A DNA stretch of 64,000 nucleotides from an uncultured virus (IMG/VR IMGVR_UViG_3300046050_000015) (lineage: Duplodnaviria > Heunggongvirae > Uroviricota > Caudoviricetes), in the IMG/VR virus record IMGVR_UViG_3300046050_000015. One strand, 5' to 3'. The notes beneath the pieces were generated by a model. That model made no database searches and was not told the DNA's origin. It worked only from the letters and a program-made list of their open reading frames with translations. Both the position numbers and the translations under genes were made by a program. Below are positions 3,564 through 51,648 of this stretch, piece by piece (position 1 is the stretch's first letter; each line of letters starts with the position of its first letter).

Positions 3564-3582
3564 CCCAATTCTACACGGTGCC

Positions 3583-3855: not shown

Positions 3856-4271
3856 AATTCAAATACTCCGTTTTGTTCGGTTTCTGGGTTGGTATTTTCT
3901 TCTATGGTACTACCATAGATGAAGAATTCAGTAGAACCTTCCCTGGGCATCTCAGTAACTTCAGACACACAACATTCATCGAAACCAATAACCATCCCAC
4001 TTTCGGTGTGGGAAATGCCAAAGAATGTCTCTAAACCAATATCATTCATAGCCCTAAGCATTCGCCCAATAGCACTACTTCTTTCAATAATGGTCGTGAG
4101 GCTATACGACCGCCGATGAGACTCCCGTCTACGGCTGGAGTGCTTGATTGTGGAGTTTATTTGCTCTACACCAGCGTTCCGAACTTCATAAACTGGTCCC
4201 TCATCCTGAATAGGAAACTTCGATTCGCCAATGTGTAGATAGCCGTAGATTTCGTTATCAAAACTAATCAC
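3852..4271 (-). CDS. hypothetical protein
   Basis: coupled to the CCA enzyme gene. Confidence 0.6.
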   Translation of the reverse strand: MISFDNEIYGYLHIGESKFPIQDEGPVYEVRNAGVEQINSTIKHSSRRRESHRRSYSLTTIIERSSAIGRMLRAMNDIGLETFFGISHTESGMVIGFDECCVSEVTEMPREGSTEFFIYGSTIEENTNPETEQNGVFEL

Positions 4272-5644
4272 GGTACTTCCCTCCGGAACTCTTCACCGAG
4301 CTGGTCTTGGTGTTGTCGAATGTACTCAGTATCCCTTTCAATGGCCTCCCTCACGAACATGTCGAGGATAAGTTTTCGGTTCAGACTGGGGTCATTATCC
4401 ACGATGGTACGCAGGGTGGAGAGGATGCCTCCAACCATGGGCCCAGGGTCGATGTACTCCAATACGTCGTCGCCGCTGATAGCTAACTCTGGAGGCTCAA
4501 CCCCGTCCTCGTTCATCAGTTCAAGCATGGACTTGATACGAACCGCCCGAGCCAGGCTATCTTGTTTGCCATGAGCCATCAGGTCAGCAACTCGAAGATT
4601 CACCAGGTCCTCAAACTCCTCATCCGAGTCAACCTTACGTCGGAGTCGACGAACGGCCTTCTTGAGATTGTGCTCGGGTTCGAACATGTGAAGATGAACT
4701 ATCCGAGCCACCCTCTCCACATCGTCGTTAGAGAACCGGAGTCGGCGCAGATATCGTTGGACGATGCGTTCGCTATCTTTCTCGTGCCCATAGAAGTGTG
4801 GGTCGTCAGGGTCACCATTGTAAGCATCTACCTTACCCACGTCGTGGAGAAGGGTAGCAAGGCGTAACAGCGGTTGGCTTGAAGGAACCTGTTTTGCAGC
4901 CTTTGTAGAATGTACCAATGGACCATGCTCGTGGTGCTCGTCGGGGTGAGGCAGGTATGCAAGCTCGTGCAATTCGGGTGGGAACAAGTCGTCGTGGAGA
5001 TTCGTGTTCATCGCCGCACCCACGAGTAGTTCCACGTCCCCGGTCATGGCTTTCATCAACTCTTCACGGATGCGTTCCTCTGCGATGGAATCAAGGTTAG
5101 TTTCCTTGATGGCTTCCAGGGTATCGTCACCGATGGAGAATTGGTAGGTAACCGCGAACCGAAGCGCCCGGAGAACTCGTAACTGGTCTTCGTCGAAGCG
5201 TTCTCGTGGCTCACCCACGGTGGAGATTCGTTGCCTGGCCAGGTCGTGTTGACCGTTGAATGGGTCAACGAGGGACCCATCGGCCATGTTTACGGCCATC
5301 GCGTTGATGGTGAAGTCACGTCGCTTCAAGTCCTCGCGGATATTGTTGGCGAACTCTACATCGTCGGGTCGGCGATTGTCGGAGTAAGTGGATTCGGTGC
5401 GGTAGGTGGTAATCTCGGCCTCTTCATCGTCGCGGTGGACAAGAATGGTACCATGGTCGATACCTACGGGCTTCAGGTCGGGAAAAACTTCAAGCATTTC
5501 TTGGGGGGTTGCATCGGTGGCGTAGTCAATGTCGTTGCTTTCCTTGCCAAGCATACGGTCCCGTACCGCGCCGCCGACGAGGTAGCACTCGTAACCGGCG
5601 CCGAGTAACTCATCCGCGATAGTTGACTCGTGTAGTAGATTCAT
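4268..5644 (-). CDS. cca: class II CCA tRNA nucleotidyltransferase with HD domain
   Basis: LVGGAVRD, DIDYAT, DLKRRDFTINAMA, EDQLR motifs; HD domain LLHDVGK...FYGHE. Confidence 0.9.
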   Translation of the reverse strand: MNLLHESTIADELLGAGYECYLVGGAVRDRMLGKESNDIDYATDATPQEMLEVFPDLKPVGIDHGTILVHRDDEEAEITTYRTESTYSDNRRPDDVEFANNIREDLKRRDFTINAMAVNMADGSLVDPFNGQHDLARQRISTVGEPRERFDEDQLRVLRALRFAVTYQFSIGDDTLEAIKETNLDSIAEERIREELMKAMTGDVELLVGAAMNTNLHDDLFPPELHELAYLPHPDEHHEHGPLVHSTKAAKQVPSSQPLLRLATLLHDVGKVDAYNGDPDDPHFYGHEKDSERIVQRYLRRLRFSNDDVERVARIVHLHMFEPEHNLKKAVRRLRRKVDSDEEFEDLVNLRVADLMAHGKQDSLARAVRIKSMLELMNEDGVEPPELAISGDDVLEYIDPGPMVGGILSTLRTIVDNDPSLNRKLILDMFVREAIERDTEYIRQHQDQLGEEFRREVP

Positions 5645-5683
5645 TGTCACAACAAATGCCTTCAAACAATAAAAGTGTTTAGA

Positions 5684-6640
5684 TTAGTGGTGGTCCGAGT
5701 ACTCGAACGTTTCCAAAGCTACCCCATCGTCTAACTTGACGACCACGACTTCTTTGTGGTCACCGAAGGCAAGTTCGAATGGGTCAATCTCGTCACCGGT
5801 TAGTTCGTTCATCATGTCACGGATGGCGTCTTGAGTGCCACCGAGTTGGCTAGGAACTTGAACCCATTCACCTTCCCGCTTCTCCTTGGTCCGGCTCCAT
5901 TCTACCCAGTTTCCTTCCGGTAACTCGTACTCCCCCACCTGGTCACCGAAATGTCCCTCCGCCACTCCGCCGAGGTAATGGATGTCATGAATCTCGTCCT
6001 CGGTTAGCGTCGTGTAGAATTCGGGTTCGTCGACGTACACGCCAAAGCTACACGGCTGACCGTCGTTGAAGTAGGGCGTAAATTGCGCCCATCGGAATGC
6101 AACGACACTATCATCTACTTCGTCAAATACCCTTTCCACTTGTTGAAGGATTACATCCGTGACCATTCCGCGGATTGGGGTAGCCAGGTCCTTAAGTTGT
6201 GCCTGAATTTGTTCGAATCGTTGTTCAATTTTTTCGCGCTCCATCGAGTCCAGGGAGTCCTCTTCTCGGTCCTCTTCGAGGCGTTCATCTGAGGGTGGTG
6301 TTCCTTGACCGTTTTGCATCCAGTCCTCAATGTCCATGGCTTGGATGTAGTCTTGGACCGTAGGAATGAACTTACCCTTGAGGTCCTCAAGAATGTGTTG
6401 TTCACCAACTTCACGAACCGGAACTTGGGAACCCTCGCTGTTCTCGACGGTTTTCCCGAAGGCTTTCTCTAGGGGGCCGTTGGGTCCGATGAACCAGGCG
6501 TTATGGGTGAGGACCCGGTGTCGATTGTCACCAACGACCCCCTTGGAACTATCCATGAAGTCGTGAATGTCGATGTAGTCCTCGGGTTCACCACCGAATG
6601 TTTTCGCGCTTGAAATCGCGTGCGTAATTGGTTTCGCCAT
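5684..6640 (-). CDS. DUF6915-like protein fused to a WxQFTPYFNDGxPCxF domain
   Basis: N-term HAISSAKTFGG..IHDFMDSSK..RHRVLTH..EQHILED; family name recalled, not searched. Confidence 0.6.
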   Translation of the reverse strand: MAKPITHAISSAKTFGGEPEDYIDIHDFMDSSKGVVGDNRHRVLTHNAWFIGPNGPLEKAFGKTVENSEGSQVPVREVGEQHILEDLKGKFIPTVQDYIQAMDIEDWMQNGQGTPPSDERLEEDREEDSLDSMEREKIEQRFEQIQAQLKDLATPIRGMVTDVILQQVERVFDEVDDSVVAFRWAQFTPYFNDGQPCSFGVYVDEPEFYTTLTEDEIHDIHYLGGVAEGHFGDQVGEYELPEGNWVEWSRTKEKREGEWVQVPSQLGGTQDAIRDMMNELTGDEIDPFELAFGDHKEVVVVKLDDGVALETFEYSDHH

Positions 6641-6666
6641 CTTGTCACCTCAGTACAACAACTTCG

Positions 6667-7104
6667 TCATGTAATCCATTCATTCCCAGTACCGCGAATA
6701 TAAGCAATTGAGACCAAGGCACTCAAGATAGCTACGGCAGCCCCCGCCAGTGCACTAATTTCCCCGGTTACGGGGACAATGATTCCAAGCCCGAAGCGGC
6801 GATTGAAATGGACGCCAAGGGGAATGCCGACGAATCCGAAGCCCAAGAACGGCAAGAGGGCGAGGGCACCATAGAGTCCAGTGAAGACGCCAATATCTTC
6901 ACCGATACCAAGGTTGGCTCCGCCAAGGAGGCCAAACGTTACGGAGGAAACATCACCCATAATTCCGCTACCTTCGCCCCCATCGTTGTTTTCTCCACCG
7001 GACCCGAGCATGCCGAGCCCAATCCAGAGACCGCCGGCTGGGCGTGTCCAGAGTCGTGGCATAGTACTCACTATTTGACTTCGTTCCGGATTAACTTCGC
7101 CCAT
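6667..7104 (-). CDS. membrane protein
   Basis: several hydrophobic Gly-rich segments. Confidence 0.55.
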   Translation of the reverse strand: MGEVNPERSQIVSTMPRLWTRPAGGLWIGLGMLGSGGENNDGGEGSGIMGDVSSVTFGLLGGANLGIGEDIGVFTGLYGALALLPFLGFGFVGIPLGVHFNRRFGLGIIVPVTGEISALAGAAVAILSALVSIAYIRGTGNEWIT

Positions 7105-7258
7105 TTACCTGCCCTCTCAAGGTGCCCCAGAAGCGTATCTTCACTAACGTTCCCATTAGCGGCATGGGACACGCTGCCCACCTCTGTCTTTAACCGCTCT
7201 ACGTAGGCCTTGGTTGGAGCGTCAGATGCATCTTCACGAATTTCATCAGGTACGAAAA

Positions 7259-8002
7259 TTATGGGTTCAACCTCTGTCGTTGAATCGCTTGTTGGTTCTC
7301 GTTCCAGACATCCATAACTGTGGGCATGTTCTCCTCTAACACGCGTTCAATGCCTTGGGACAGGTCTCGAATCTCACTCTGAGCGTCACCGGCACCACGC
7401 ATGTGTAAAATGTGGAAAGCCGTGCGAACGTTCATACTGGCCGTGATGTTGACCTTCGTCCCGATAGGAAGAACCATGCGGGCCTTCTCCTTGGGCACCC
7501 CGCTCTCCACCAAGTCTTCGTACAGCAGGACGCATGCCTCGTAGTGGGCCTTGATGGCGGCCTCACGTTGCTCTTGTGACATGTCAATGTTCATCAACCC
7601 ACCTTCACGGGCCTGCACGGAATCCTCGACGAAGGCATCTGGCCAACGGAAATCTTCACGGCTGGCTCCATCCTTGTCGCTGAAGTCGACGTAGCGCATC
7701 GACTGAATGTCGAAGCTAATGTGGCGGTGTCGGGTAATCTGCGCCATACAGGAACGACTAACGCGGAAATGGAGAGTGAACTGGGGATGCTCGAAGGGAC
7801 CCCAATGTCCTCGTAGCATGAGCTTCTTGAGAAGGGTATACTTCTTCTCCTGAATGGTGTCCCCATCAGTGCCTTCCATAACGGTTTCGAGGCTGTCCTC
7901 GGTTACGTTACCGTTGTAGTAGTCGTTGCGGGCACATGTACACACCAACTCTTCGGGGTTATCTGTAAATTCGATGCATTGAACTTCAACCATAATCTTC
8001 AC
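7259..8002 (-). CDS. thyX: FAD-dependent thymidylate synthase
   Basis: GHWGPFEH and RHRHISFDIQSMRY signature, ARMVLP, AQSEIR. Confidence 0.95.
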   Translation of the reverse strand: MKIMVEVQCIEFTDNPEELVCTCARNDYYNGNVTEDSLETVMEGTDGDTIQEKKYTLLKKLMLRGHWGPFEHPQFTLHFRVSRSCMAQITRHRHISFDIQSMRYVDFSDKDGASREDFRWPDAFVEDSVQAREGGLMNIDMSQEQREAAIKAHYEACVLLYEDLVESGVPKEKARMVLPIGTKVNITASMNVRTAFHILHMRGAGDAQSEIRDLSQGIERVLEENMPTVMDVWNENQQAIQRQRLNP

Positions 8003-8241
8003 CCCTTCTCGAAGATAACGATGTTGTCACCATTTTGACCGTGCATAGTGCAGAAGAGGGTGATGATACCAGCTTGAATACCGAGCATGGCCCAGAAAGT
8101 TGTCTGAGCTGCTTCAACTGTCCCTTGGAATACTACCACACCCATGCCAATCAGGGGAACTGCACTCAACACGGCGGCGTACATGGCACTCTTGGGGTGT
8201 TGGGGTTCTTGTCCGATGTTTTCGATTAGCTCCTTACACAT
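7999..8241 (-). CDS. small membrane protein
   Basis: two hydrophobic helices; overlaps thyX start. Confidence 0.55.
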   Translation of the reverse strand: MCKELIENIGQEPQHPKSAMYAAVLSAVPLIGMGVVVFQGTVEAAQTTFWAMLGIQAGIITLFCTMHGQNGDNIVIFEKG

Positions 8242-8334
8242 TGTTTATCCTCGGATGCGGACGGTTTGGTTTCAAGCATCGCACCACCAAATATTTATCC
8301 ATATATATTAGTGTTCCGGTTGTGTAGATGGGTG

Positions 8335-8511
8335 TTAGGCCGAGGCAACTAGACCTACCAGGAACCCAAAGATGACGATTGCGCCACCAAGGGTTGCACT
8401 AATCCAGAGTGGTGATAGGACCCATAGCCAAGACCAACCAATCGTACCTGTGAGCTTCAGCACAAGGAATAGTAGGGTCAACACTACCGGAAGACTAACA
8501 CTTGAGGACAT
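8335..8511 (-). CDS. small membrane protein (MSSSVSLPVVLTLLFLVLKLTGTIGWSWLWVLSPLWIS...)
   Basis: 58-aa ORF read manually; LKLTGxIxWSWxWVLSPLW pattern is common in small phage membrane proteins. Confidence 0.7.
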   Translation of the reverse strand: MSSSVSLPVVLTLLFLVLKLTGTIGWSWLWVLSPLWISATLGGAIVIFGFLVGLVASA

Positions 8512-8634
8512 CTTAACTCACCTACAGAGTGAAGGTGGCTCAAGACTTAAAGGATTTACGGTTGGTCATGTAGACCCCAACCCTCAACTACGGACCCAGT
8601 GATTCAACGCAAATGACTCACCACAGTGAGTCAA

Positions 8635-8708
8635 AGGTCTCGACAGGACTCGAACCCGCAATGGCCCGATTAGAAGTCGGGTACGTTATCCAGTTTCGTC
8701 ACGAGACC
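8635..8708 (-). tRNA. tRNA-Arg(UCU)
   Basis: cloverleaf; CCCGA-CT-TCT-AA-TCGGG; GGTTCGAGTCC. Confidence 0.9.
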
Positions 8709-8710
8709 AA

Positions 8711-8784
8711 TGCACTCGACCGGATTCGAACCAGTGACTTCCAGGTTCGCAACCTGGCGTCCTCATCCACTAGACCACGAGCGC
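8711..8784 (-). tRNA. tRNA-Arg(GCG)
   Basis: CCAGG-TT-GCG-AA-CCTGG; GCG anticodon is archaeal-type. Confidence 0.9.
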
Positions 8785-8785
8785 A

Positions 8786-8888
8786 TGGTGGGTGAAGATT
8801 CCTTGTCGTCTTCGTTACCTGCGGTCGGTGAGTCGACCTTGAAATCTACGAATAGCAGAACTTCTCTCGATTCGGAATCCTCAACCCA
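8786..8888 (-). ncRNA. unknown structured RNA ending in CCA
   Basis: 5' TGGGTTGAGGATTCC pairs with 3' GGAATCTTCACCCA, followed by CCA. Confidence 0.5.
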
Positions 8889-8889
8889 G

Positions 8890-8992
8890 TACGCCCGACC
8901 GGACTCGAACCGGTAATCACCCCCGTATCAGGTGGGCGGGGTTACCCCGGCGGCTCATAAAACCGCTGCCTTGCCAATTTGGCCACGAGCGT
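8890..8992 (-). tRNA. atypical tRNA, anticodon UAU, about 35-nt variable region
   Basis: acceptor ACGCTCG/CGGGCGT-A; GCGGT-TT-TAT-GA-GCCGC; T arm ACCGG-TTCGAGT-CCGGT. Confidence 0.8.
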
Positions 8993-8996
8993 ATAA

Positions 8997-9068
8997 CGGC
9001 CCCCAGTGGACTCGAAACACCATCGCCTGGGTAACAACCAGGCATGCTACCAATTACACCAGGGGGTC
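8997..9068 (-). tRNA. tRNA-Asn(GUU)
   Basis: CCTGG-TT-GTT-AC-CCAGG; imperfect T stem. Confidence 0.8.
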
Positions 9069-9070
9069 AG

Positions 9071-9146
9071 TACGCCTGGCCGGATTTGAACCGGCGACTT
9101 CTGATATATCAGACCAGCGTCTTAAGCCAGACTCGACCACAGGCGA
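9071..9146 (-). tRNA. tRNA-Ile(GAU)
   Basis: CTGGT-CT-GAT-AT-ATCAG; U1-U72 mismatch. Confidence 0.85.
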
Positions 9147-9147
9147 G

Positions 9148-9221
9148 CGCACCCGGCAGGATTCGAACCTGCGGCCACCCGGTTAACAGCCGGGGGCTGT
9201 CGGCCTCTTAGCTACGGATGC
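9148..9221 (-). tRNA. tRNA-Asn(GUU), second copy
   Basis: CCCGG-CT-GTT-AA-CCGGG. Confidence 0.85.
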
Positions 9222-9224
9222 GAG

Positions 9225-9316
9225 CGCCGCCGAACGGATTCGAACCATTATGCCCCGTTTCTCAGAGGCACACGCTTTCCAGGCGTGCGAGCTAGACCAG
9301 GTTGCTCAACGGCGAC
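9225..9316 (-). tRNA. tRNA-Ser(GGA)
   Basis: CACGC-CT-GGA-AA-GCGTG, long variable arm, G73. Confidence 0.9.
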
Positions 9317-9324
9317 AAATGGAG

Positions 9325-9416
9325 CGCTGCCGAGCGGATTCGAACCACTACACCCCATCTTGCAGAGGTACCAGGATAGCAACCTGGCGAGCTAGACCGA
9401 ATTGCTCAACGACAGC
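9325..9416 (-). tRNA. tRNA-Ser(GCU)
   Basis: CCAGG-TT-GCT-AT-CCTGG, long variable arm, G73. Confidence 0.9.
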
Positions 9417-9425
9417 ACGTGTGAA

Positions 9426-9513
9426 CGCCGCGGACAGGGGTCGAACCTGTAAACCCGTAAGGGCGTCCCGCTTTCAAGGCGGGCACAGTCGCCAGCTATC
9501 TGTTTGCCACGGC
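9426..9513 (-). tRNA. tRNA-Ser(UGA)
   Basis: CCCGC-CT-TGA-AA-GCGGG, long variable arm; atypical C8 and D arm. Confidence 0.85.
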
Positions 9514-9521
9514 AAGATGAG

Positions 9522-9595
9522 TGCATCCCACCGGATTCGAACCGACATCATGTCCGGTCTTCAGCCGGGCGCCTCCCAGGTTGGGCCAGGGATGT
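9522..9595 (-). tRNA. tRNA-Phe(GAA)
   Basis: CCGG-CT-GAA-GA-CCGG; A1-C72 mismatch. Confidence 0.85.
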
Positions 9596-9598
9596 AGA

Positions 9599-9670
9599 AG
9601 CTAGTGCCAGGAATCGAACCCTGGATTACCTCCTTACGAGGGAGGTGTCTTACCGTTGGACCACACCAGC
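9599..9670 (-). tRNA. tRNA-Thr(CGU)
   Basis: CCTCC-CT-CGT-AA-GGAGG. Confidence 0.9.
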
Positions 9671-9671
9671 A

Positions 9672-9743
9672 AGCCACCACCCGGACCTGCACCGGGCTCT
9701 GCTCCATACCAGGGAGCTACATCGCTATCTATGCTTTGGCGGC
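9672..9743 (-). tRNA. tRNA-Thr(GGU), non-canonical T and D loops
   Basis: GCTCC-CT-GGT-AT-GGAGC; T loop TGCAGGT. Confidence 0.8.
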
Positions 9744-9829
9744 AGATAAGGATTGCTGTTTGCCTTTTGTTGGCGGAGCGGTTGTAGGTTCTAAGCTATT
9801 CCAATAGTGCTAGAAGCACTATTAAAGTG

Positions 9830-9899
9830 GGTGAACCTACGGGAGTCTGAAGCCGTGCAGAAGAAATGGGGGCACATAGCTTCAGACATCACATTCACC
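9830..9899 (-). ncRNA. hairpin RNA with pyrimidine-rich loop
   Basis: GGTGAA/TTCACC, GTCTGAAGCT/GGCTTCAGAC, GTGC/GCAC stems; starts about 20-25 nt below a TTTTAAAT box. Confidence 0.45.
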
Positions 9900-9913
9900 G
9901 TATGTTTCTCCAC

Positions 9914-9928
9914 CCATTTAAAAGTTTG
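9914..9928 (-). promoter_or_regulatory. archaeal BRE/TATA promoter inside the tRNA array
   Basis: AAACTTTTAAATG on minus strand. Confidence 0.5.
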
Positions 9929-9963
9929 GTTCAACTCCCCCCCCCCCCACTACAGGGTATGAG

Positions 9964-10054
9964 TGGCTCCGGCAGGATTCGAACCTGCGATAGGGTCGCT
10001 ATGTCCCGAATTTAAACCGGGTGCCTTCGGCCAGACTCGGCTTGCCACGGAGCC
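9964..10054 (-). tRNA. tRNA-Leu(UAA)
   Basis: CCCGG-TT-TAA-AT-TCGGG, long variable arm, 4 extra nt before D stem. Confidence 0.85.
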
Positions 10055-10087
10055 ATAAGTGAAGATAAAAGACAAGGGCAAAAAATG

Positions 10088-10183
10088 TTACGACCCAATG
10101 GCCCACAAGACAAACCATAGGGCAAACGCTAGCGCTCCCATCAAAATGAGGTAACCGAACACGACCTTCAAGAACACTTTCAT
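10088..10183 (-). CDS. 31-aa single-helix membrane peptide (MKVFLKVVFGYLILMGALAFALWFVLWAIGS)
   Basis: hydrophobic ORF read manually between two tRNAs. Confidence 0.45.
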   Translation of the reverse strand: MKVFLKVVFGYLILMGALAFALWFVLWAIGS

Positions 10184-10199
10184 CCTCCTTATGGTCAGT

Positions 10200-10219
10200 C
10201 AACCATAAATTTATGGTTG
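10200..10219. promoter_or_regulatory. perfect 20-bp palindrome, possible operator/promoter
   Basis: CAACCATAAATTTATGGTTG. Confidence 0.45.
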
Positions 10220-10240
10220 GTGAACCTTCGAACAGTAAGG

Positions 10241-10313
10241 GGTCGGGACCGGGATTCGAACCCAGACCAGTGGGGTCACAGTCCACTATGCTAACCATTA
10301 CACCACCCCGAAC
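10241..10313 (-). tRNA. tRNA-His(GUG)
   Basis: GTGG-A-CT-GTG-AC-C-CCAC; encoded G-1 opposite C73. Confidence 0.85.
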
Positions 10314-10323
10314 CAAGGTGAAG

Positions 10324-10397
10324 AGTCCCCGACAGGACTTGAACCCGCAACTTCTTGGTTCGAAGCCAAGCGTCCTATCCGATTAGACCACGGGGAC
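10324..10397 (-). tRNA. tRNA-Arg(UCG)
   Basis: CTTGG-CT-TCG-AA-CCAAG. Confidence 0.9.
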
Positions 10398-10400
10398 GAG

Positions 10401-10484
10401 AGGGCCAGGAGGGATTCGAACCCCCGGGGGATTGCTCCGGCGGGTTAAAAGCCCGCTGCCCTACCGTGCTAGGCACACTGGCCC
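10401..10484 (-). tRNA. tRNA-Lys(UUU) with long variable arm
   Basis: GCGGG-CT-TTT-AA-CCCGC; variable hairpin GGA-GCAA-TCC. Confidence 0.85.
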
Positions 10485-10493
10485 TACCATGGG

Positions 10494-10652
10494 AGCATGA
10501 ATCGTCGATATACCCACTGGAGCTTGGATGGGTCCCCAAGGTACGCCTCTACCCAAGTAATCGCCTGCTCTGGTCCCTCATCGAAACCGATTCGACGAGC
10601 CCGAGCATACACATACCCAAGGTGTATCGGGTAAAATGGAGACGATTCAGCT
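10494..10652 (-). ncRNA. unknown multibranched structured RNA
   Basis: closing stem AGCTGAATCGTC/GACGATTCA(T)GCT; hairpins CTCGTCGAA/TTCGATGAG and ATACAC/GTGTAT. Confidence 0.55.
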
Positions 10653-10682
10653 ACCGGTGGGGTTGGCGGCTTGTCATGCAAG

Positions 10683-10754
10683 TGGGCCTACCCGGAGTCG
10701 AACCGGGCACTGGAGGTTAAGAATCTCCCGTCCTGACCACTAGACCATAGGCCC
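10683..10754 (-). tRNA. tRNA-Lys(CUU)
   Basis: GGAG-A-TT-CTT-AA-C-CTCC. Confidence 0.85.
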
Positions 10755-10757
10755 AAG

Positions 10758-10830
10758 TGGGGGACCTAGGATTTGAACCTAGAGCCACTGCTTCCAAGGC
10801 AGCAATGTTTCCAAGTTACACCAATCCCCC
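10758..10830 (-). tRNA. tRNA-Pro(UGG)
   Basis: GCTGC-CT-TGG-AA-GCAGT; A37. Confidence 0.85.
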
Positions 10831-10859
10831 GGGATGAGATACGGTAATCTAAGAACGTC

Positions 10860-10961
10860 GACGATTCGGTGTCAGCCACAAGAAGAGTTTCGACACCCTA
10901 CGCTGAAGCTTTAGGGTGCGGATGTTTCCGGGGTGGCTGCTTCCGGAACATCTGAATCACC
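10860..10961 (-). ncRNA. unknown RNA with predicted pseudoknot or kissing loop
   Basis: P1 GGTGATTC/GAATCGTC; P2 GATGTTCCGG/CCGGAAACATC with loop CAGCCAC complementary to downstream GTGGCTG; P3 CACCCTA/TAGGGTG. Confidence 0.55.
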
Positions 10962-10971
10962 CTATGTGGTT

Positions 10972-11520
10972 TCAGGTATTTAACTCTTCACCTTCGGCCT
11001 TGTGGAACTTTGGCTCATAAGAATCATATTCTTGTAGTTCCCAAAGGACCTTCGGATAATGACAGTTCACGTACTGTGTCCCGAAATCGATAACCTTACT
11101 CTGGGTACGGATGGTGAACAGAAGGTAGTTCTCGCCTTCCTTTGGTCCCCACACACCATCACCTACCGCCTCCGTCCACTTTTCCTTGTCGGCTTGGATG
11201 AAGGGGGTGTTGGTTTCATAGTCCGCACTTGAGACTTCCTCAACCTCTTCACCAATGGCTTTATAGTTGCTAGGTCTATCATCCACCACTCCGTTGTTGA
11301 CTTCAGCAATGTACCAGTTATCGTTCCAAGAGTACTCATACGTCTTACTCTTAATAACAATATGACATTCGTTATTATTCCTACCTAAGTGAAGAACGGT
11401 GGTCGTTACACGTTGACTGATTCCTCGAAGGAATTCACCTTCCAGGTCGTCAAAGGTCCATCCATGGTCTACGATGGCCCCAAAGTATGGGACATCGGTA
11501 ACCACACTCGAATCGACCAA
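10972..11520 (-). CDS. hypothetical protein inside the tRNA array
   Basis: 182-aa acidic ORF; start uncertain (poly-G run just upstream). Confidence 0.55.
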   Translation of the reverse strand: MVDSSVVTDVPYFGAIVDHGWTFDDLEGEFLRGISQRVTTTVLHLGRNNNECHIVIKSKTYEYSWNDNWYIAEVNNGVVDDRPSNYKAIGEEVEEVSSADYETNTPFIQADKEKWTEAVGDGVWGPKEGENYLLFTIRTQSKVIDFGTQYVNCHYPKVLWELQEYDSYEPKFHKAEGEELNT

Positions 11521-11583
11521 CCTACTGTATGCGCGGGGGGGGGGGTATAGCGGTTAGATGAAAGACAGAATTCGGTTGTTAAG

Positions 11584-11673
11584 AGCTTGGAGGGAGATTT
11601 GACCTCCCATTNNNNNNNNNNCCCATTCTTCCGGTTACAAACCGGCTGCCTTATCCAGTTTAGCCATCCAAGC
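11584..11673 (-). tRNA. tRNA-Thr(UGU), interrupted by assembly gap
   Basis: CCGG-TT-TGT-AA-CCGG; AATGGG repeated either side of N run; T loop GTCAAAT. Confidence 0.75.
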
Positions 11674-11706
11674 AATCTTCACATCTACCATCTAAGATAC
11701 CCGAAA

Positions 11707-11811
11707 TAGCCCCGGCAGGATTCGAACCTGCGTTGGGCGATATCTTCAGCCCACAGGGAATGCCTGGAAGCTTCCAAAGTCGCCCTGGATTGGCCACTAC
11801 CATACGGGGCA
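11707..11811 (-). tRNA. tRNA-Gln(UUG) with 32-nt BHB intron at 37/38
   Basis: GGCGA-CT-TTG-G[AAGCTTCCAGGCATTCCCTGTGGGCTGAAGAT]A-TCGCC; central helix CTTT/GAAG flanked by two 3-nt bulges. Confidence 0.85.
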
Positions 11812-11812
11812 G

Positions 11813-11887
11813 TTGGACCACCCGGATTCGAACCGGGGTTGAACCGATGTAAGCGGCACGTGATAAGCCAGGCTACACTATGGTCCA
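11813..11887 (-). tRNA. tRNA-Val(UAC)
   Basis: GCCG-CT-TAC-AT-CGGT. Confidence 0.85.
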
Positions 11888-11888
11888 A

Positions 11889-11977
11889 TGGTACCGGCTG
11901 GATTCGAACCAGCGATGAGGTCTCTATGTCCAGGGTCTCGACCTGGTGGGTTCGACCAGACTCCCCGCCACGGTACC
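11889..11977 (-). tRNA. tRNA-Leu(GAG)
   Basis: CCAGG-TC-GAG-AC-CCTGG; C33, A37; long variable arm. Confidence 0.85.
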
Positions 11978-12018
11978 AAGATGAAGCAGATGAAGCACAT
12001 GACATATAGCCATAATGC

Positions 12019-12031
12019 TACTTAAGGTTTT
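12019..12031 (-). promoter_or_regulatory. archaeal BRE/TATA promoter
   Basis: AAAACCTTAAGTA on minus strand; variants recur upstream of many genes. Confidence 0.55.
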
Positions 12032-12084
12032 ATGTAGAGATTTCACCGATATCGTTTAGTTGGGCCCCAATGCCAGGGGTCCAA

Positions 12085-12158
12085 AGGGACGCATGGAACT
12101 CGAATCCATCTACCAAGACTTTGGAGGTCTGGCGGATGCCATACTACCTTAGCGTCCC
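12085..12158 (-). tRNA. tRNA-Trp(CCA), intronless
   Basis: AGAC-CT-CCA-AA-GTCT. Confidence 0.8.
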
Positions 12159-12162
12159 AGAG

Positions 12163-12233
12163 TTTACCCGACCCGATTCGAACGGATATACCGAGGTTTA
12201 CAGCCTCGGCGGTTCACATTACCTCACGGGTAG
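12163..12233 (-). tRNA. tRNA-Tyr(GUA), short variable loop
   Basis: CGAGG-CT-GTA-AA-CCTCG; C1-A72 mismatch, D loop lacks GG. Confidence 0.75.
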
Positions 12234-12235
12234 AG

Positions 12236-12310
12236 TGGAGTTGACCGAACTTGAACCGGTGGCCGTGTCCTTGCAAGGGACCTGTTCTGGCCAATTGGAA
12301 CTACGACCCC
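12236..12310 (-). tRNA. tRNA-Ala(UGC)
   Basis: GTCC-CT-TGC-AA-GGAC; G3-U70 present. Confidence 0.85.
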
Positions 12311-12312
12311 AG

Positions 12313-12383
12313 TGCGTCGAGTCGGATTTGAACCGACGGCGTCAGCTTGGAAGGCTGACATGTTGCCCCTACACCATCGACGC
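12313..12383 (-). tRNA. tRNA-Gly(UCC)
   Basis: TCAGC-CT-TCC-AA-GCTGA. Confidence 0.9.
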
Positions 12384-12388
12384 ATGAG

Positions 12389-12478
12389 TTGTGGGCCCTG
12401 GACTTGAACCAGGAGTTCCCCAGGTTATGAGCCTGGTGCCTTATTCCATGTCTCTCGACATTATTTGGCCAGCCCACA
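12389..12478 (-). tRNA. tRNA with CAU anticodon (Met or Ile2), hairpin inserted in D loop
   Basis: CCAGG-CT-CAT-AA-CCTGG; D loop contains ATGTC-GAGA-GACAT. Confidence 0.8.
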
Positions 12479-12481
12479 AAA

Positions 12482-12555
12482 TCGCGGCCAGTGGATTTGA
12501 ACCACCAGTTGGGGCTTATGAAACCCCCGCCCTCTCCAGGTTAGACCAAGCCGCG
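12482..12555 (-). tRNA. tRNA with CAU anticodon (Met or Ile2)
   Basis: GGGGT-TT-CAT-AA-GCCCC. Confidence 0.85.
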
Positions 12556-12586
12556 AATCGGATTGTAAATATTTGTGATTTGGTTA

Positions 12587-12661
12587 GCGCCGCCCGCAGG
12601 ACTTGCACCCGCAGCGTCCGGTAGACAGCCGAACATGTTTCTAACTTACACCAGGAGCGGC
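12587..12661 (-). tRNA. tRNA-Asp(GUC), atypical
   Basis: TTCGG-CT-GTC-TA-CCGGA; U37; T loop TGCAAGT; bulged acceptor stem. Confidence 0.75.
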
Positions 12662-12698
12662 AAGTGCGGGTCGCTACCTTCCCAGGTCGTGCCCGCGA

Positions 12699-12773
12699 AG
12701 GTGCTGGCAGGATTTGAACCCGCGTATCCGGGGCGAAAACCCAGAATGATTGGCCGGACTACACTACAGCACC
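12699..12773 (-). tRNA. tRNA-Glu(UUC)
   Basis: CTGGG-TT-TTC-GC-CCCGG. Confidence 0.85.
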
Positions 12774-12775
12774 AG

Positions 12776-12852
12776 TGGACCCCCACAGATTTGAACTGTG
12801 AGCCTTCCCCAAGCCAAGAGGGCGTCTTCAACCTGGTTTGGACCAGGGGCCC
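12776..12852 (-). tRNA. tRNA-Ala(GGC)
   Basis: CCTC-TT-GGC-TT-GGGG; G3-U70; U37. Confidence 0.8.
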
Positions 12853-12877
12853 ATAGATGGAGGGCGTTTAACCTCCG

Positions 12878-13173
12878 CCCCACAGGAGGACCCTTAGCAC
12901 TCCACACCAATGGTGTTTCAACGTACCTGTTTCGGGTTTCCCAGGCCAGCTAGCCCTACCCGACACGGTTATCCCGTGCCGAATGGGCGACGAAGTGCTA
13001 GTTCACACAACCCACCGTTCCCGGGGTCAAGGGTACCGTGCCAATCGTGGTGGACAGGCCGTCCGGGAGCCATCCCGGTAAAGGGTTGCTTCACCTGGGC
13101 GTGCAGGCCGCCGAAGAGCATGGGTGGGCTATCTTCGGTCTGGTTAACGTGTTCCCAAACCGCACCTGCGGAG
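12878..13173 (-). ncRNA. large (about 296 nt) structured RNA of unknown class
   Basis: terminal stem CTCCGCAGG/CCTGTGGGG; internal stems TAGCACTTC/GGAGTGCTA, TTCGGCACGG/CCGTGTCGGG, CCGAAGA/TCTTCGG, CCGGGA/TCCCGG; fills the gap between two tRNAs. Confidence 0.65.
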
Positions 13174-13262
13174 TGGATGCGGGTGGATTTGAACCACCGA
13201 TAGGGTCGCTATGTACGGGTTCTAAGCCCGTTGGGTTCGACCAGACTCCCCGCCACGCATCC
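13174..13262 (-). tRNA. tRNA-Leu(UAG)
   Basis: ACGGG-CT-TAG-AA-CCCGT; long variable arm. Confidence 0.9.
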
Positions 13263-13263
13263 A

Positions 13264-13296
13264 TGGTGGGACGAGACATGTATGTAGTTCGTCCCA
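13264..13296 (-). ncRNA. minihelix-like hairpin ending in CCA
   Basis: TGGGACGA-14nt-TCGTCCCA-CCA directly upstream of first tRNA. Confidence 0.35.
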
Positions 13297-13311
13297 TAAG
13301 TATGTTTGGTT

Positions 13312-14754
13312 TTAGTCAGCCTTCAGGTTGAGAATGGGGTCAACTCGGTCGACAATCTCCACCGTGGGACCGATAGCTTCCTCGATAAGGCCGGGGTCTT
13401 TGTAGGCCCCGGGAATTTCATCGATGGGCGCCTTCGAGGTGTAGACTCCTTCGGTCTGTTTGTCGAAGTCGTCCTCATCGAATCGGCGCTCGGCATCCCG
13501 ACGGCCCATGGCTCGACCCGCACCGTGTGGGGCGCTGTTGTTCCAACTCGGGTCACCCTTACCGCGACAAATGAGAGTCCCATACTCGATGTTGAACGGG
13601 ATGATGACAAACTTATCTTGGTGGGCCCGACAAGCACCCTTCCGAATCGTGGAGTCGTCGAAGTCAATATAGTTGTGGACCGACGATACCGCGTCGTTGA
13701 TGTAATCGAACGATTCTCCAAGTGCCGTTGCTACGCCTTCAGCCATGATACGACGATTTTCCTCGGCGTAGGTTTGGGCGAAAATCATGTCACGGATGTA
13801 CCCGTGCGTCTCTTCACCCTCCAAGTAGTCCAGGTCCTCGTTACGGTTAGTGCTCTGGAGTTGGTGGACGATTGTCTTGAGTTCTTCGCGAATCTCACCG
13901 ATGCGCTCTGGTTCGGTCTCTCGATAGTCGGCCTTGAGGGCTTCGTAGTTGACGAAATCTTCACCCATGGAACCGTGAATCCAATCCAGAATCTCGTGGT
14001 TGGGTGTAGAGTAGGGGTTGAATTTCACGTAATCGTCGTATCCTTCCTCCACGATGTCGTCGAGCCAGTGATTCATCGTGTCGAAGTTGCGTAGTTCTGT
14101 GGCGCGGTCCATCCAGTATTCGGCGATGCTGAGGCCAAGGCCGCGGCTACCGGAGTGAATGATGCACCATAGGTCTCCGCTCTTCTCACCTTTTCCAAGC
14201 TCGATGAAATGATTGCCCCCACCAAGCGTGCCGACGCTTTGGGCAGCTCGGCTGGGGTCGTAGCCTACGCGGTCGAGGAGTTCGTCGTAGTAGTCTGGCC
14301 CGTAATCGGTCTCGACATGGAAGTCGTTGTGCTTGCTCTCGTTGAAACGCTCAAGCTTGTGTTGACAGAGGCTATAGGGAAAGTCGTTGTGCATGTGGTA
14401 CACGGCGTCGCCATGGACATCGAATCCCATGGGCACCTCTTCACGGATGCGCTGGTCAAGTTCTTCCACGTTGCCGAGTCTAGTTCGGCGGAAATTGGCC
14501 GCCAGCATGCCGCACCCAATATCTACCCCCACCGTTCCGGGGACAATGCGGTTACCGAGAGGTTTAGTGAACCCAATAACGGCCCCGGCTCCCCAATGTG
14601 CGTCAGGCATAATGGTAATGTCGTCGTCACCAACGAACGCTTCGTGGTTTACCATTTCCTGAATCTGTTCCATGGCCTCACCTTCGATTTCTTCCACCTT
14701 TACATCCGCGGTATTGTATTTTCCTTCAACAATCATTGGCCCAGTCCAACCCAT
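13312..14754 (-). CDS. rtcB: RtcB RNA ligase (tRNA splicing/repair)
   Basis: MPDAHWG, VGVDIGCG, GTLGGGNHFIE, IHSGSRG, HNY, SAPHGAGR, DEIPGAYK; start may be 14736. Confidence 0.95.
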   Translation of the reverse strand: MGWTGPMIVEGKYNTADVKVEEIEGEAMEQIQEMVNHEAFVGDDDITIMPDAHWGAGAVIGFTKPLGNRIVPGTVGVDIGCGMLAANFRRTRLGNVEELDQRIREEVPMGFDVHGDAVYHMHNDFPYSLCQHKLERFNESKHNDFHVETDYGPDYYDELLDRVGYDPSRAAQSVGTLGGGNHFIELGKGEKSGDLWCIIHSGSRGLGLSIAEYWMDRATELRNFDTMNHWLDDIVEEGYDDYVKFNPYSTPNHEILDWIHGSMGEDFVNYEALKADYRETEPERIGEIREELKTIVHQLQSTNRNEDLDYLEGEETHGYIRDMIFAQTYAEENRRIMAEGVATALGESFDYINDAVSSVHNYIDFDDSTIRKGACRAHQDKFVIIPFNIEYGTLICRGKGDPSWNNSAPHGAGRAMGRRDAERRFDEDDFDKQTEGVYTSKAPIDEIPGAYKDPGLIEEAIGPTVEIVDRVDPILNLKAD

Positions 14755-14793
14755 CTACGGGACAATGAGACTAGTCTCATAAATAGATTGGGG

Positions 14794-15447
14794 TCACAAG
14801 CTTAGTTCGTCCTTGGGGATATATTCTCGGTCCCAGGACTGGTCACTTGTGTCGAACCGAACGTACTGGTAGGGGTCGTCCCACATTTCGTCCATTGGTG
14901 GCAAGCTAATGATGTGGGTTCCATTGATGTACCTCTGGTCCGGCTCGTGGATATGTCCATGGACGTAAAGGTCGGGGTCTACCATGTCGGCGACTTGACA
15001 GAAGTAATCTTCACCAGCCTTCTCATACCACGGCTTGTCGTGGGTGATGAGGACATCGGAACCGTAGAGACACTTGATTAACTCCTCGTCCTCTTCGGTC
15101 CACATGCGGCGGTCCTCACCGAGGTAATAGAAGTTCTGCAATGCCCATTCGCATTTCTCGATGCCACCAAGGAACCCAAACTCTACACCACCGAAGGTAA
15201 TTTTCTTGTAGTCGTCCACGAACCGTTTCGTGTAGGGCATCTGGTAGTCGTTGTTTCTCCACCCGTTGAGCTTACCGAAGTGCTCGTGGTTTCCACGGAT
15301 AAAGAACATGGGTGTAGATGTGGATTCCTGGTAGGCGTAGTGGTCCCCTGCCTGTAGGAGGATGTCTAATCCTTCTTGTTCGGCTAGGATGTCAGCTTTG
15401 CGGATACCCTTGCGTCCGTGTACGTCACCGACAATGCCGATAATCAT
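14794..15447 (-). CDS. calcineurin-like metallophosphoesterase
   Basis: GDVHG, AGD, RGNHE, ITHD, HGHIH. Confidence 0.9.
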   Translation of the reverse strand: MIIGIVGDVHGRKGIRKADILAEQEGLDILLQAGDHYAYQESTSTPMFFIRGNHEHFGKLNGWRNNDYQMPYTKRFVDDYKKITFGGVEFGFLGGIEKCEWALQNFYYLGEDRRMWTEEDEELIKCLYGSDVLITHDKPWYEKAGEDYFCQVADMVDPDLYVHGHIHEPDQRYINGTHIISLPPMDEMWDDPYQYVRFDTSDQSWDREYIPKDELSL

Positions 15448-25539: not shown

Positions 25540-25540
25540 G

Positions 25541-51641: not shown

Positions 51642-51648
51642 GTGCGAC

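Follow-up and report, generated by a model that had tools for sequence, protein, structure and literature searches.

The closest described counterpart of the system discussed here is the transfer RNA (tRNA) kit of HGTV-1 (Halomagnusviridae), for which 36 tRNAs, a CCA-adding enzyme and the RNA ligase RtcB were reported and a supply and maintenance function was already proposed in a study that lists TROVE/Ro60, Rnl2 ligases and LysRS as well (Liu et al. 2021, PMC8651126). A comparable combination is found in jumbo phages, in which self-encoded tRNAs are accompanied by RtcB or Rnl ligases, RlaP and a CCA enzyme, interpreted there as restoring tRNAs cut by effector ribonucleases (RNases) of the host (Iyer et al. 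2021, PMC7824862). Here we analyse a similar arrangement in an uncultured tailed virus (IMG/VR IMGVR_UViG_3300046050_000015, Caudoviricetes). A stretch of 64,000 nucleotides (nt) of its DNA, hereafter called the window, contains between positions 4268 and 15447 an array of 32 tRNA candidates, all on the minus strand (8635-13262), with RtcB and a phosphoesterase encoded upstream and a CCA-adding enzyme downstream. We think that this is probably a tRNA supply-and-maintenance block of a haloarchaeal tailed virus. A large tRNA array, a CCA enzyme and RtcB occur in one archaeal virus genome here, as they do in HGTV-1, and we regard array and enzymes as a new example of the kit already described in HGTV-1, i.e. 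not as a new category. The idea of supply and repair is itself not new, because it has been published for both HGTV-1 and the jumbo phages.

It is useful to compare the general features of the block to these two systems. HGTV-1 likewise carries a large one-strand tRNA set, of which 35 members are annotated in the stretch compared, and its tRNA clusters are broken by small open reading frames (ORFs) and by homing endonucleases. It shares with the window RlaP, the thymidylate synthase ThyX on the RtcB strand, an annotated HSP90 chaperone/HSP90-like ATPase and intron-bearing tRNAs, and the G+C content at third codon positions (GC3) is about 0.62 in both. There are differences, too. Firstly, the CCA gene of HGTV-1 lies about 45 kb from RtcB, whereas the enzymes of the window sit around a compact 4.6-kb array. 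Secondly, the neighbour of RtcB is a metallophosphoesterase in the window, while in HGTV-1 an HD protein is encoded upstream of RtcB, separated from it by two small genes. Thirdly, HGTV-1 has TROVE, but TROVE, LysRS and Rnl2 are not among the 64 window ORFs searched with Pfam; the virus contig runs at least 14 kb past the window, and these genes could lie there. Finally, unlike HGTV-1 the window is without tRNA-Cys, the order of the tRNAs is not conserved, and the structural genes are unrelated. The jumbo phages share the tRNAs, RtcB, RlaP and the CCA enzyme, but here the host is archaeal and the genome (contig of at least 78.6 kb) is much smaller. In contrast to the jumbo-phage repair systems, the window did not show an ATP-grasp ligase, a polynucleotide kinase, KptA or Thg1. 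If the calls presented below hold, 28-32 genes would place this array among the largest archaeal-virus tRNA sets, the published record being 36 (HGTV-1), and the compact layout together with the expanded tRNAs makes it a convenient test case for the maturation of polycistronic viral tRNA precursors in archaea.

The tRNA genes were searched for with ARAGORN (default, -i and -ps90 settings) and with Rfam covariance models, the gathering score of the tRNA model RF00005 being 29 bits. ARAGORN in default mode gave 24 tRNA genes in the 64-kb window, 23 of them on the minus strand at 8635-12773; the lone plus-strand call (13161-13243) was rejected as the mirror image of the minus-strand tRNA-Leu(TAG), which Rfam scores at 49.5 bits. 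The Rfam scan in E-value mode covered positions 3500-16500 and was followed by narrower scans. It listed 32 matches, of which 24 are minus-strand RF00005 matches above 29 bits, and the others are all sub-threshold, i.e. one tRNA-Sec-like match (9427-9513, 28.1 bits), six plus-strand mirrors and one sR45 match inside the CCA gene. The intron-bearing tRNA-Gln was gained by a narrower scan (39.8 bits). The support can be arranged in three tiers. In the first, 25 of the 32 candidates reach the Rfam tRNA threshold, the other seven falling short of RF00005 membership; in the second, tRNA-Trp, tRNA-Tyr and tRNA-Asp are given by ARAGORN default only (Rfam 18.8 bits or nothing); the third holds four weak candidates, Ser(TGA), a CAT tRNA with a 26-nt D-loop, Ala(GGC) and Thr(GGT). 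The last two were seen only with -ps90, and both fold as cloverleaves. The 32 one-strand tRNA genes claimed in a preliminary description of this DNA are recovered in this way (25 + 3 + 4), with the reservation that four are weak. The anticodons span 19 amino acids, those of 14 candidates begin with T (U34 tRNAs), and no tRNA-Cys was found at any ARAGORN threshold. The candidates are the following (MFE, minimum free energy):

8635..8708, minus strand, tRNA-Arg(TCT); ARAGORN, Rfam 56 bits
8711..8784, minus strand, tRNA-Arg(GCG); ARAGORN, Rfam 64.9 bits
8890..8992, minus strand, tRNA-Ile(TAT) with variable region of ~35 nt; Rfam 50.7 bits, anticodon loop read from the sequence
8997..9069, minus strand, tRNA-Asn(GTT), copy 2; ARAGORN, Rfam 46.4 bits
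9071..9146, minus strand, tRNA-Ile(GAT); ARAGORN, Rfam 56.8 bits
9148..9221, minus strand, tRNA-Asn(GTT), copy 1; ARAGORN, Rfam 61.9 bits
9225..9316, minus strand, tRNA-Ser(GGA); ARAGORN, Rfam 42.4 bits
9325..9416, minus strand, tRNA-Ser(GCT); ARAGORN, Rfam 45.4 bits
9426..9513, minus strand, probable tRNA-Ser(TGA), weak; tRNA-Sec model 28.1 bits (sub-threshold), cloverleaf and anticodon by eye
9522..9595, minus strand, tRNA-Phe(GAA); ARAGORN, Rfam 34.1 bits
9599..9670, minus strand, tRNA-Thr(CGT); ARAGORN, Rfam 55.8 bits
9672..9743, minus strand, possible tRNA-Thr(GGT) with atypical T-loop, weak; ARAGORN -ps90 only, cloverleaf MFE -30.0, no Rfam match
9964..10054, minus strand, tRNA-Leu(TAA); Rfam 31.2 bits, variable arm homologous to the other two Leu tRNAs
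10241..10313, minus strand, tRNA-His(GTG); ARAGORN, Rfam 45.9 bits
10324..10397, minus strand, tRNA-Arg(TCG); ARAGORN, Rfam 63.5 bits
10401..10484, minus strand, tRNA-Lys(TTT) with variable arm of ~14 nt; ARAGORN, Rfam 50.5 bits, folded structure
10683..10754, minus strand, tRNA-Lys(CTT); ARAGORN, Rfam 58.2 bits
10758..10830, minus strand, tRNA-Pro(TGG); ARAGORN, Rfam 51.2 bits
11584..11673, minus strand, tRNA-Thr(TGT), long variable region with N10 run at 11612-11621; Rfam 44.7 bits
11707..11811, minus strand, tRNA-Gln(TTG) with 32-nt intron at 11742-11773; ARAGORN -i, Rfam 39.8 bits, bulge-helix-bulge scan
11813..11887, minus strand, tRNA-Val(TAC); ARAGORN, Rfam 48.8 bits
11889..11977, minus strand, tRNA-Leu(GAG); ARAGORN, Rfam 43.4 bits
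12085..12158, minus strand, tRNA-Trp(CCA); ARAGORN default only, no Rfam match
12163..12233, minus strand, tRNA-Tyr(GTA), 71 nt, short variable loop, C1; ARAGORN default only
12236..12310, minus strand, tRNA-Ala(TGC), G3:U70; ARAGORN, Rfam 42.4 bits
12313..12383, minus strand, tRNA-Gly(TCC); ARAGORN, Rfam 64.3 bits
12388..12479, minus strand, probable CAT-anticodon tRNA, 26-nt D-loop holding a hairpin, weak; Rfam 20.7 bits (partial), cloverleaf MFE -37.0
12481..12556, minus strand, tRNA-Met(CAT); ARAGORN, Rfam 42.3 bits
12588..12661, minus strand, tRNA-Asp(GTC); ARAGORN default, Rfam 18.8 bits (partial)
12699..12773, minus strand, tRNA-Glu(TTC); ARAGORN, Rfam 53.2 bits
12776..12852, minus strand, probable tRNA-Ala(GGC), G3:U70, weak; ARAGORN -ps90 only, no Rfam match
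13174..13262, minus strand, tRNA-Leu(TAG); Rfam 49.5 bits, ARAGORN -ps90

The genes are grouped in eight clusters, within which the spacers are mostly 1-12 nt long (three are 31-37 nt), and the clusters are separated by gaps of 105-321 nt and by one 753-nt stretch that contains an ORF of 182 amino acids (aa). When the acceptor stems were placed by script and the bases after the discriminator were read, CCA was found in none of the 32 genes, as the preliminary description had stated. In 19 of them the sequence continues N73-C-T, in 12 N73-T, and in tRNA-His CC. The C-T trailers were not seen in HGTV-1, where the post-discriminator base is mostly T.

The codon usage of 44 window ORFs (GC3 0.616; CAA accounts for 62% of Gln, GAA for 54% of Glu and AAA for 35% of Lys codons), taken together with the anticodon set, would fit a supply role. 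Two haloarchaeal loci were considered as a codon proxy for the host and set aside as not usable (G+C content 45% and 61%, unreliable ORF calls). The same figures would suit an explanation by supply only, in which the array matches viral codons or replaces depleted host tRNAs, the enzymes are general early-region genes of nucleic-acid metabolism and their closeness to the array is inherited and not a functional coupling. We consider this explanation unlikely. The 14 U34 tRNAs suit the frequent A/U-ending codons and the only amino acid without a viral tRNA, Cys, is also the rarest residue (120 of 11,727 codons), a compensation argument that is drawn from the viral codons. Further points on both sides come from the enzymes, which are the following:

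4268..5665, minus strand, class II (bacterial-type) CCA-adding tRNA nucleotidyltransferase with C-terminal HD domain; Pfam PolyA_pol 2.9e-39, PolyA_pol_RNAbd, HD 5.2e-08
13312..14754, minus strand, RtcB RNA ligase; Pfam PF01139 2.2e-59, PHROG 1075 4.7e-118 over residues 7-479
14794..15447, minus strand, calcineurin-like metallophosphoesterase; Pfam Metallophos_2 3e-11
22250..22933, minus strand, RlaP-family Pol-beta nucleotidyltransferase; Pfam PF10127 3e-20 (73.4 bits, cut-off 23), PHROG 388

The Pfam matches agree with the preliminary description on all four genes, i.e. a CCA-adding/HD enzyme downstream of the array, RtcB and a calcineurin-like phosphoesterase directly upstream, and an RlaP-like nucleotidyltransferase at 22250-22933.

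The likely start of the CCA enzyme is M8 (the database copy has 458 aa). Its head could be aligned to the enzymes of Planococcus (6ibp) and Geobacillus (1miv), with which it shares GGAVRD, DxD, RRDFTINA and EDxxR; in motif D, FDEDQLRVLRALRF aligns with EDxxR of 6ibp, the CTP/ATP-selecting template. The HD domain is recognised by Pfam HD and by the HDIG model, the latter above its cut-off, and the dyad lies in LLHDVGK. The best NCBIfam model is PRK13299 (Bacillus-type) with 264.5 bits, under the cut-off of 290, and all nine other matching tRNA nucleotidyltransferase/poly(A) polymerase models also score under their cut-offs, so that the protein is not assigned to an equivalog. It is a divergent class II member, whose score does not settle CCA- versus CC- or A-adding specificity. 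The bacterial class II CCA/HD enzymes (6ibp, 1miv and the multifunctional enzyme of E. coli, NCBIfam PRK10885) have the same head motifs and an HD motif; here, by contrast, the enzyme is encoded by an archaeal virus and does not reach the equivalog cut-offs of NCBIfam. That the HD domain can act as a phosphatase is familiar from the E. coli CCA enzyme only.

The bacterial type of the enzyme deserves attention, as archaea themselves use class I CCA enzymes. Among control genomes PF01743 was found in 10 bacterial and 0 archaeal ones and PF09249 only in the 4 archaeal ones. A search with the viral protein gave 7,114 homologues, the nearest of which are bacterial (the named ones mostly from Spirochaetota) with 37-42% identity. 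HGTV-1 has a class II enzyme as well (a 445-aa ORF, PolyA_pol 66.8 bits). The two proteins share 31% identity across 330 aa, the HD motif included, and a PF09249 search found no class I enzyme in HGTV-1. Bacterial-type enzymes in two viruses whose hosts have class I would represent a clear cross-domain acquisition. To our knowledge class II CCA enzymes have no role apart from tRNA 3' ends, and the recurrence of such a tRNA-specific enzyme in the second archaeal virus that has a large array, HGTV-1, argues against supply only. As a side observation, the class II CCA gene of HGTV-1 has an SprT-like gene immediately in front of it, the two overlapping (locus L081, 647-2730), while the SprT-like ORF of the window is distant from its CCA gene (51616-52206).

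RtcB joins RNA ends carrying a 3'-phosphate or 2',3'-cyclic phosphate to 5'-OH ends and is the tRNA-splicing ligase of archaea. In the viral protein PDAHWG, DIGCG, GNHF, HSGSRG and HGAGR align with the RtcB of T. thermophilus (2epg) and the HNY motif was read from the translation; these contain what we take to be the metal-binding Asp, Cys and His residues and the GMP-accepting His. All ligase motifs that could be aligned are thus present in this putative ligase. Its nearest relatives are found in haloarchaeal viruses, with identities of 51% to HGTV-1, 45-46% to HCTV-1/5/16 and 41% to HF1/HF2 and relatives.

The phosphoesterase is more difficult to interpret. All five metallophosphoesterase motifs (DxH, GD, GNH[E/D], H and GHxH) are kept; across 26 homologues D8, H10, G34-D35, G52-N53-H54-E55, H136 and G164-H165-x-H167 vary little or not at all. 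An AlphaFold2 model with a predicted local distance difference test score of 95.4 confirms the calcineurin-like fold. Its sequence matched no solved structure. Foldseek places the RNA debranching enzyme Dbr1 first (template modelling score 0.65-0.68), with purple acid phosphatase, LpxH, GpdQ, Mre11 and Rv0805 close behind, and because the lead of Dbr1 is narrow the fold does not reveal the substrate; in particular, this ranking does not single out RNA ends with a 2',3'-cyclic phosphate or 3'-phosphate, on which Pnkp-type healing enzymes act. Among 1.84 billion representatives, 78 relatives reach E values of 0.001 or lower, and a cluster look-up of the relatives gave neither names nor genomic context; in word-based homologue searches this protein, like the 182-aa ORF of the array, is essentially an orphan. 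A locus search in IMG/VR, made with a four-sequence alignment, gave four distant homologues (22-25% identity), of which three lie about 0.5-1.5 kb from tRNA genes, two of them at loci with arrays of 10 and 27 tRNAs. One homologue, on contig L088, has TROVE/Ro60 upstream and a Thg1 gene downstream that overlaps the phosphoesterase stop. The vicinity of tRNA genes in three of the four contigs, with Thg1 and TROVE in one, again argues against supply only. The L088 locus is of interest in its own right as another phosphoesterase-linked RNA-repair neighbourhood: on this 139-kb IMG/VR contig, TROVE/Ro60, an SPFH protein, a tRNA-Arg, the metallophosphoesterase, Thg1 and an HSP90-like ATPase follow each other in one direction (5180-12852), and 12 tRNAs are found within 20 kb.

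RlaP is reported to extend damaged RNA 3' ends by 1-2 nt (PMC12776372). A sequence of events can be proposed in which these proteins act together with the array. The tRNA clusters would be transcribed as polycistronic precursors and host RNase P would cut before each tRNA, so that the upstream tRNA would keep a trailer of one to a few nt, mostly C-U. After trimming of this trailer, the CCA end would be completed by the viral CCA enzyme together with the class I enzyme of the host. The host splicing endonuclease would excise the intron of tRNA-Gln and viral or host RtcB would join the halves. The same enzymes may restore tRNAs that have lost their CCA or suffered cuts in the anticodon loop. A 3' phosphate that blocks repair might be removed by the HD domain or the phosphoesterase, a missing nucleotide put back by RlaP and the break closed by RtcB. 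The virus makes heavy use of codons ending in A or U (GC3 0.62), and the array would supply tRNAs that read them. The preliminary description had held that the virus makes and matures its own tRNA pool, and this fits the gene content, i.e. a near-complete tRNA set, an intact-looking CCA enzyme, RtcB, the phosphoesterase and RlaP, while a repair function aimed at a tRNA-cleaving defence of the host is something that we only infer, by analogy with phage systems (Iyer et al. 2021; PMC12776372).

There are several points that weigh against a dedicated supply-and-maintenance block. Archaeal hosts own a CCA enzyme and RtcB, i.e. the viral copies are not strictly required, and the set of 32 tRNAs includes four that were called only below threshold. 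About 3 kb separate the last tRNA from the CCA gene, with unrelated genes inside, and RlaP is encoded 6.8 kb upstream of the phosphoesterase gene, past an intein-bearing terminase gene. The CCA protein and the phosphoesterase each occur on a single contig (a search of IMG/VR with the CCA protein found no relatives), and the fold match of the phosphoesterase model is generic. RtcB relatives in IMG/VR (12 loci), metagenomes (67 loci) and species genomes (11 loci) are at most 50% identical, and the ten best of these loci, when scanned, had 0 or 1 tRNA and no array; RtcB also occurs without an array in haloviruses with one to few tRNAs. A tblastn search of 81 loci (80 with RtcB, the other being the HGTV-1 CCA locus L081) gave no homologue of the phosphoesterase, RlaP or the DUF6915 protein, a weak negative because the RlaP of HGTV-1 is itself undetectable by BLAST. 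The sequence is listed in one DNA run, from a halite metagenome, and in no RNA run. Finally, HGTV-1, HCTV-1 (one tRNA) and HF2 all have RtcB and ThyX on the same strand, no more than 12 kb apart. In the window the tRNA array sits between these two genes, the surroundings being as follows:

5684..6640, minus strand, DUF6915-domain protein; Pfam PF21866 1.7e-36, PHROG unknown-function families, Atlas neighbours are viral DUF6915 clusters
6667..7104, minus strand, 145-aa ORF without family in Pfam, NCBIfam or PHROG
7259..8002, minus strand, ThyX thymidylate synthase; Pfam Thy1 4.2e-47, syntenic partner of RtcB in haloviruses
15448..15837, minus strand, 129-aa ORF abutting the phosphoesterase gene, without family in Pfam, NCBIfam or PHROG
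15939-18923, minus strand, terminase large subunit split by an intein with LAGLIDADG endonuclease domain; Pfam

The closeness of RtcB and ThyX in array-poor haloviruses means that the bracketing of the array is partly an inherited gene order. The bracketing claimed earlier is tight on the side of RtcB and the phosphoesterase, which are just upstream, and loose on the CCA side, where ThyX, the DUF6915 protein and three small ORFs fill the ~3 kb. Synteny in related haloviruses, which had been suggested as a check, is similarly divided, since HGTV-1 has the same functional set but the RtcB-ThyX order persists without arrays. Supply only would gain from this synteny in haloviruses with 1-5 tRNAs, from the presence of ThyX and the DUF6915 protein in the island and of a terminase gene next door, and from the lack of a phosphoesterase homologue beside RtcB in the 80 RtcB-bearing loci.

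The tRNA-Gln(TTG) gene provides a different link between array and ligase. It has a 32-nt insert at position 37/38 that forms a strict helix-bulge-helix-bulge-helix motif, with an outer helix of 6 base pairs (bp), a central helix of 4 bp (one G-U) and an inner helix of 5 bp, the 3-nt bulges GGA and ATA being on opposite strands, as in archaeal bulge-helix-bulge introns. In archaeal tRNA splicing the endonuclease cuts such motifs, and the resulting 2',3'-cyclic phosphate and 5'-OH ends are sealed by RtcB. The viral tRNA-Gln(UUG) has the matching motif; the difference is that here the ligase is virus-encoded and only one of 32 tRNAs needs it. One could therefore suppose that RtcB serves splicing and not a response to host defence, i.e. 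that it mainly ligates intron-bearing pre-tRNAs (the viral Gln-UUG and those of the host), circularises excised RNAs and keeps splicing capacity up during strong transcription of the viral array. The strict intron at 37/38 speaks for this, as do the known role of RtcB as the archaeal splicing ligase and the two annotated intron-bearing tRNAs of HGTV-1, one of which is found 1.1 kb downstream of its RtcB. However, the host already has RtcB, only one viral tRNA in 32 has such an intron, HCTV-1 has RtcB but a single, intron-less 75-nt tRNA-Gln, and the accompanying RlaP and HD/CCA functions fit damage repair better. We regard splicing as the main purpose of RtcB as rather unlikely.

No other tRNA insertion or spacer satisfied the strict motif in a scan of the whole array, and bulge-helix-bulge motifs are at chance level (83 candidates compared to 60-81 in 10 shuffles), so that the insertions in D-loops and variable arms and the spacers are not strict bulge-helix-bulge introns. 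Four tRNAs are expanded without it. In the variable region Ile-TAT has about 35 nt, Lys-TTT about 14 nt and Thr-TGT at least 21 nt including N10, and the CAT tRNA has a D-loop of 26 nt. Exact runs of ten N are present at 11612-11621 and 32778-32787; because the first of these falls inside the variable region of Thr-TGT, its real length and arm cannot be read. In HGTV-1 Lys-TTT and Thr-TGT are of standard length, unlike the expanded versions here.

The gaps between the clusters were also studied. Seven spacers and four coding controls of 141 nt were folded and compared, as z values, with dinucleotide shuffles (100 for spacer A, 200 for the other spacers). The spacers and the small ORFs of the array are:

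12853..13173, minus strand, spacer A, 321 nt, 60% G+C; z -3.54, 0/100 shuffles as stable
11978..12084, minus strand, spacer B, 107 nt, AT-rich; z -1.13, 29/200 as stable, structure not significant
10831..10971, minus strand, spacer C2, 141 nt, structured; z -3.26, 0/200 as stable
10485..10682, minus strand, spacer D, 198 nt; z -2.22, 4/200 as stable, filled by a 65-aa ORF (10484-10681)
9744..9963, minus strand, spacer F, 220 nt; z -2.94, 0/200 as stable
8785..8889, minus strand, spacer G, 105 nt; MFE -36.7, z -3.73, 0/200 as stable
between tRNA-Glu and tRNA-Asp, minus strand, hairpin of 37 nt; z -2.47, 4/200 as stable
10088..10183, minus strand, hydrophobic 31-aa ORF (spacer E), with the ribosome-binding-like motif AAGGAGGA before and a T6 run after it
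8335..8511, minus strand, 58-aa hydrophobic ORF after the last tRNA, two putative membrane helices (hydrophobicity by eye)
10972..11520, minus strand, 182-aa acidic ORF inside the array, orphan

Four of the seven spacers (A, C2, F and G) were more stable than every shuffle, two were marginal and one was not significant; the preliminary description had counted at least six base-paired elements that are not tRNAs, and the four stand out while the remaining three do not. The coding controls gave z values of +0.73, -1.17, +1.58 and -2.82. Spacer A has a well-defined multibranch fold (MFE -140, with a centroid of -135.1 near the minimum-energy fold), in spacer F two long hairpins and a G12 run occur together with a 32-47-aa ORF, and spacer G has a 13-bp closing stem followed by ACCA, directly before tRNA-Arg(GCG), this being the only place in the array with CCA after a helix end. 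Spacers A, C2, F and G are possible unknown RNAs, as far as predicted folding can tell.

Such stable folds raise the question whether the long spacers represent novel non-coding RNAs, cut from the precursor by the flanking tRNA-processing enzymes. What argues for this is that none of the 100-200 shuffles reaches the stability of A, C2, F or G (z -2.9 to -3.7), that the centroid of the GC-rich spacer A is near its minimum-energy fold, and that the hairpin of spacer G ends in ACCA like a minihelix. On the other hand, Rfam families were found in none of the spacers, lax filters included (for spacer A, E values up to 10 gave only one 12-bit chance match), bulge-helix-bulge motifs are not enriched, and one of the four coding controls reached z -2.82. 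There are also ORFs of 65 aa (D), 31 aa (E), 58 aa (after the last tRNA) and 182 aa in the region, just as the array of HGTV-1 is broken by annotated small ORFs, and no relatives were found for covariation. Release of such RNAs from the spacers therefore seems improbable to us, and the earlier statement that tRNA processing releases additional non-coding RNAs is not borne out, since beyond fold stability there is no RNA family and no excess of splicing motifs, and the spacers have ORFs inside. The 182-aa ORF had no match in Pfam, NCBIfam or PHROG and matched only itself among 5.8 billion proteins.

The C-T trailer rule, the four tRNA expansions and the ACCA-tailed hairpin of spacer G remain oddities without explanation. 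One could speculate that they belong to a partly host-independent tRNA 3'-end pathway that also yields unusual RNAs. A viral DEDD exoribonuclease (24961-25569) would then trim after RNase P and stall at C74, bypassing tRNase Z; 19 of the 32 genes template C74 followed by U, and the class II CCA enzyme would add only C and A. The expanded Ile-UAU, Lys-UUU and Thr-UGU (U34, A-ending codons) and the CAU tRNA might be nuclease-resistant or differently charged isoacceptors, and the 321-nt GC-rich spacer and the ACCA-tailed hairpin might be new structured viral RNAs freed by the same cuts. This is highly speculative and we consider it very unlikely.

Returning to the supply-and-maintenance block, its assignment to a haloarchaeal virus depends on several features. 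The bulge-helix-bulge intron of tRNA-Gln and the short-arm tRNA-Tyr indicate an archaeal host. A 71-nt tRNA-Tyr with a short variable loop and C1 is of the archaeal/eukaryal type, and the tRNA-Tyr genes in the bacterial-phage contigs compared are 82-98 nt long, as opposed to 71 nt here. The virus is probably an uncultured tailed virus of halophilic archaea that represents a new deep lineage. Its portal protein belongs to the following feature:

62162-63670, plus strand, portal protein; Pfam Phage_portal_3

A tblastn search of 50,697 phage records (E up to 1e-5) gave no match to it, and the C-extein of the terminase matches only bacterial podophage terminases (22-31% identity). An unmatched portal and a distant terminase mean that accessory genes, and not the core, are shared with HGTV-1. 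As neither protein has detectable kinship to cultured haloviruses, the kit of tRNAs, CCA enzyme, RtcB and RlaP would have been assembled or exchanged across unrelated lineages of archaeal viruses. Near-identical DNA was limited to a single 66-bp match in ThyX in the same 50,697 records.

A few minor observations concern the array and its surroundings. Scans for sigma-70 promoters and intrinsic terminators gave chance-level results, these models not being suited to archaea, and a TATA-like pattern found three overlapping sites, all in one spacer. Homopolymers of at least 8 nt in the array (minus strand) are limited to G12 (9937-9948, after tRNA-Leu(TAA)) and C11 (11535-11545), the latter 25 nt in front of the 182-aa ORF. 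Either run could mark a site prone to assembly errors or the junction of an insertion. A 273-aa ORF located downstream of the CCA gene (2604-3425, minus strand) has a weak similarity to LigD primase-polymerase (8e-05, under the Pfam cut-off). Between the start of the window and about 22.9 kb nearly all genes are on the minus strand, and further upstream of the island the same strand encodes an Rv2179c-like DEDD 3'-5' exoribonuclease (24961-25569) and a DHHA1-domain protein (31727-32725), candidate enzymes for trimming 3' trailers or for nano-RNA. On the plus strand, at 53400-55151, there is an HSP90/GHKL-type ATPase with a helix-hairpin-helix tail, and a similar ATPase follows the phosphoesterase-Thg1 pair of contig L088.

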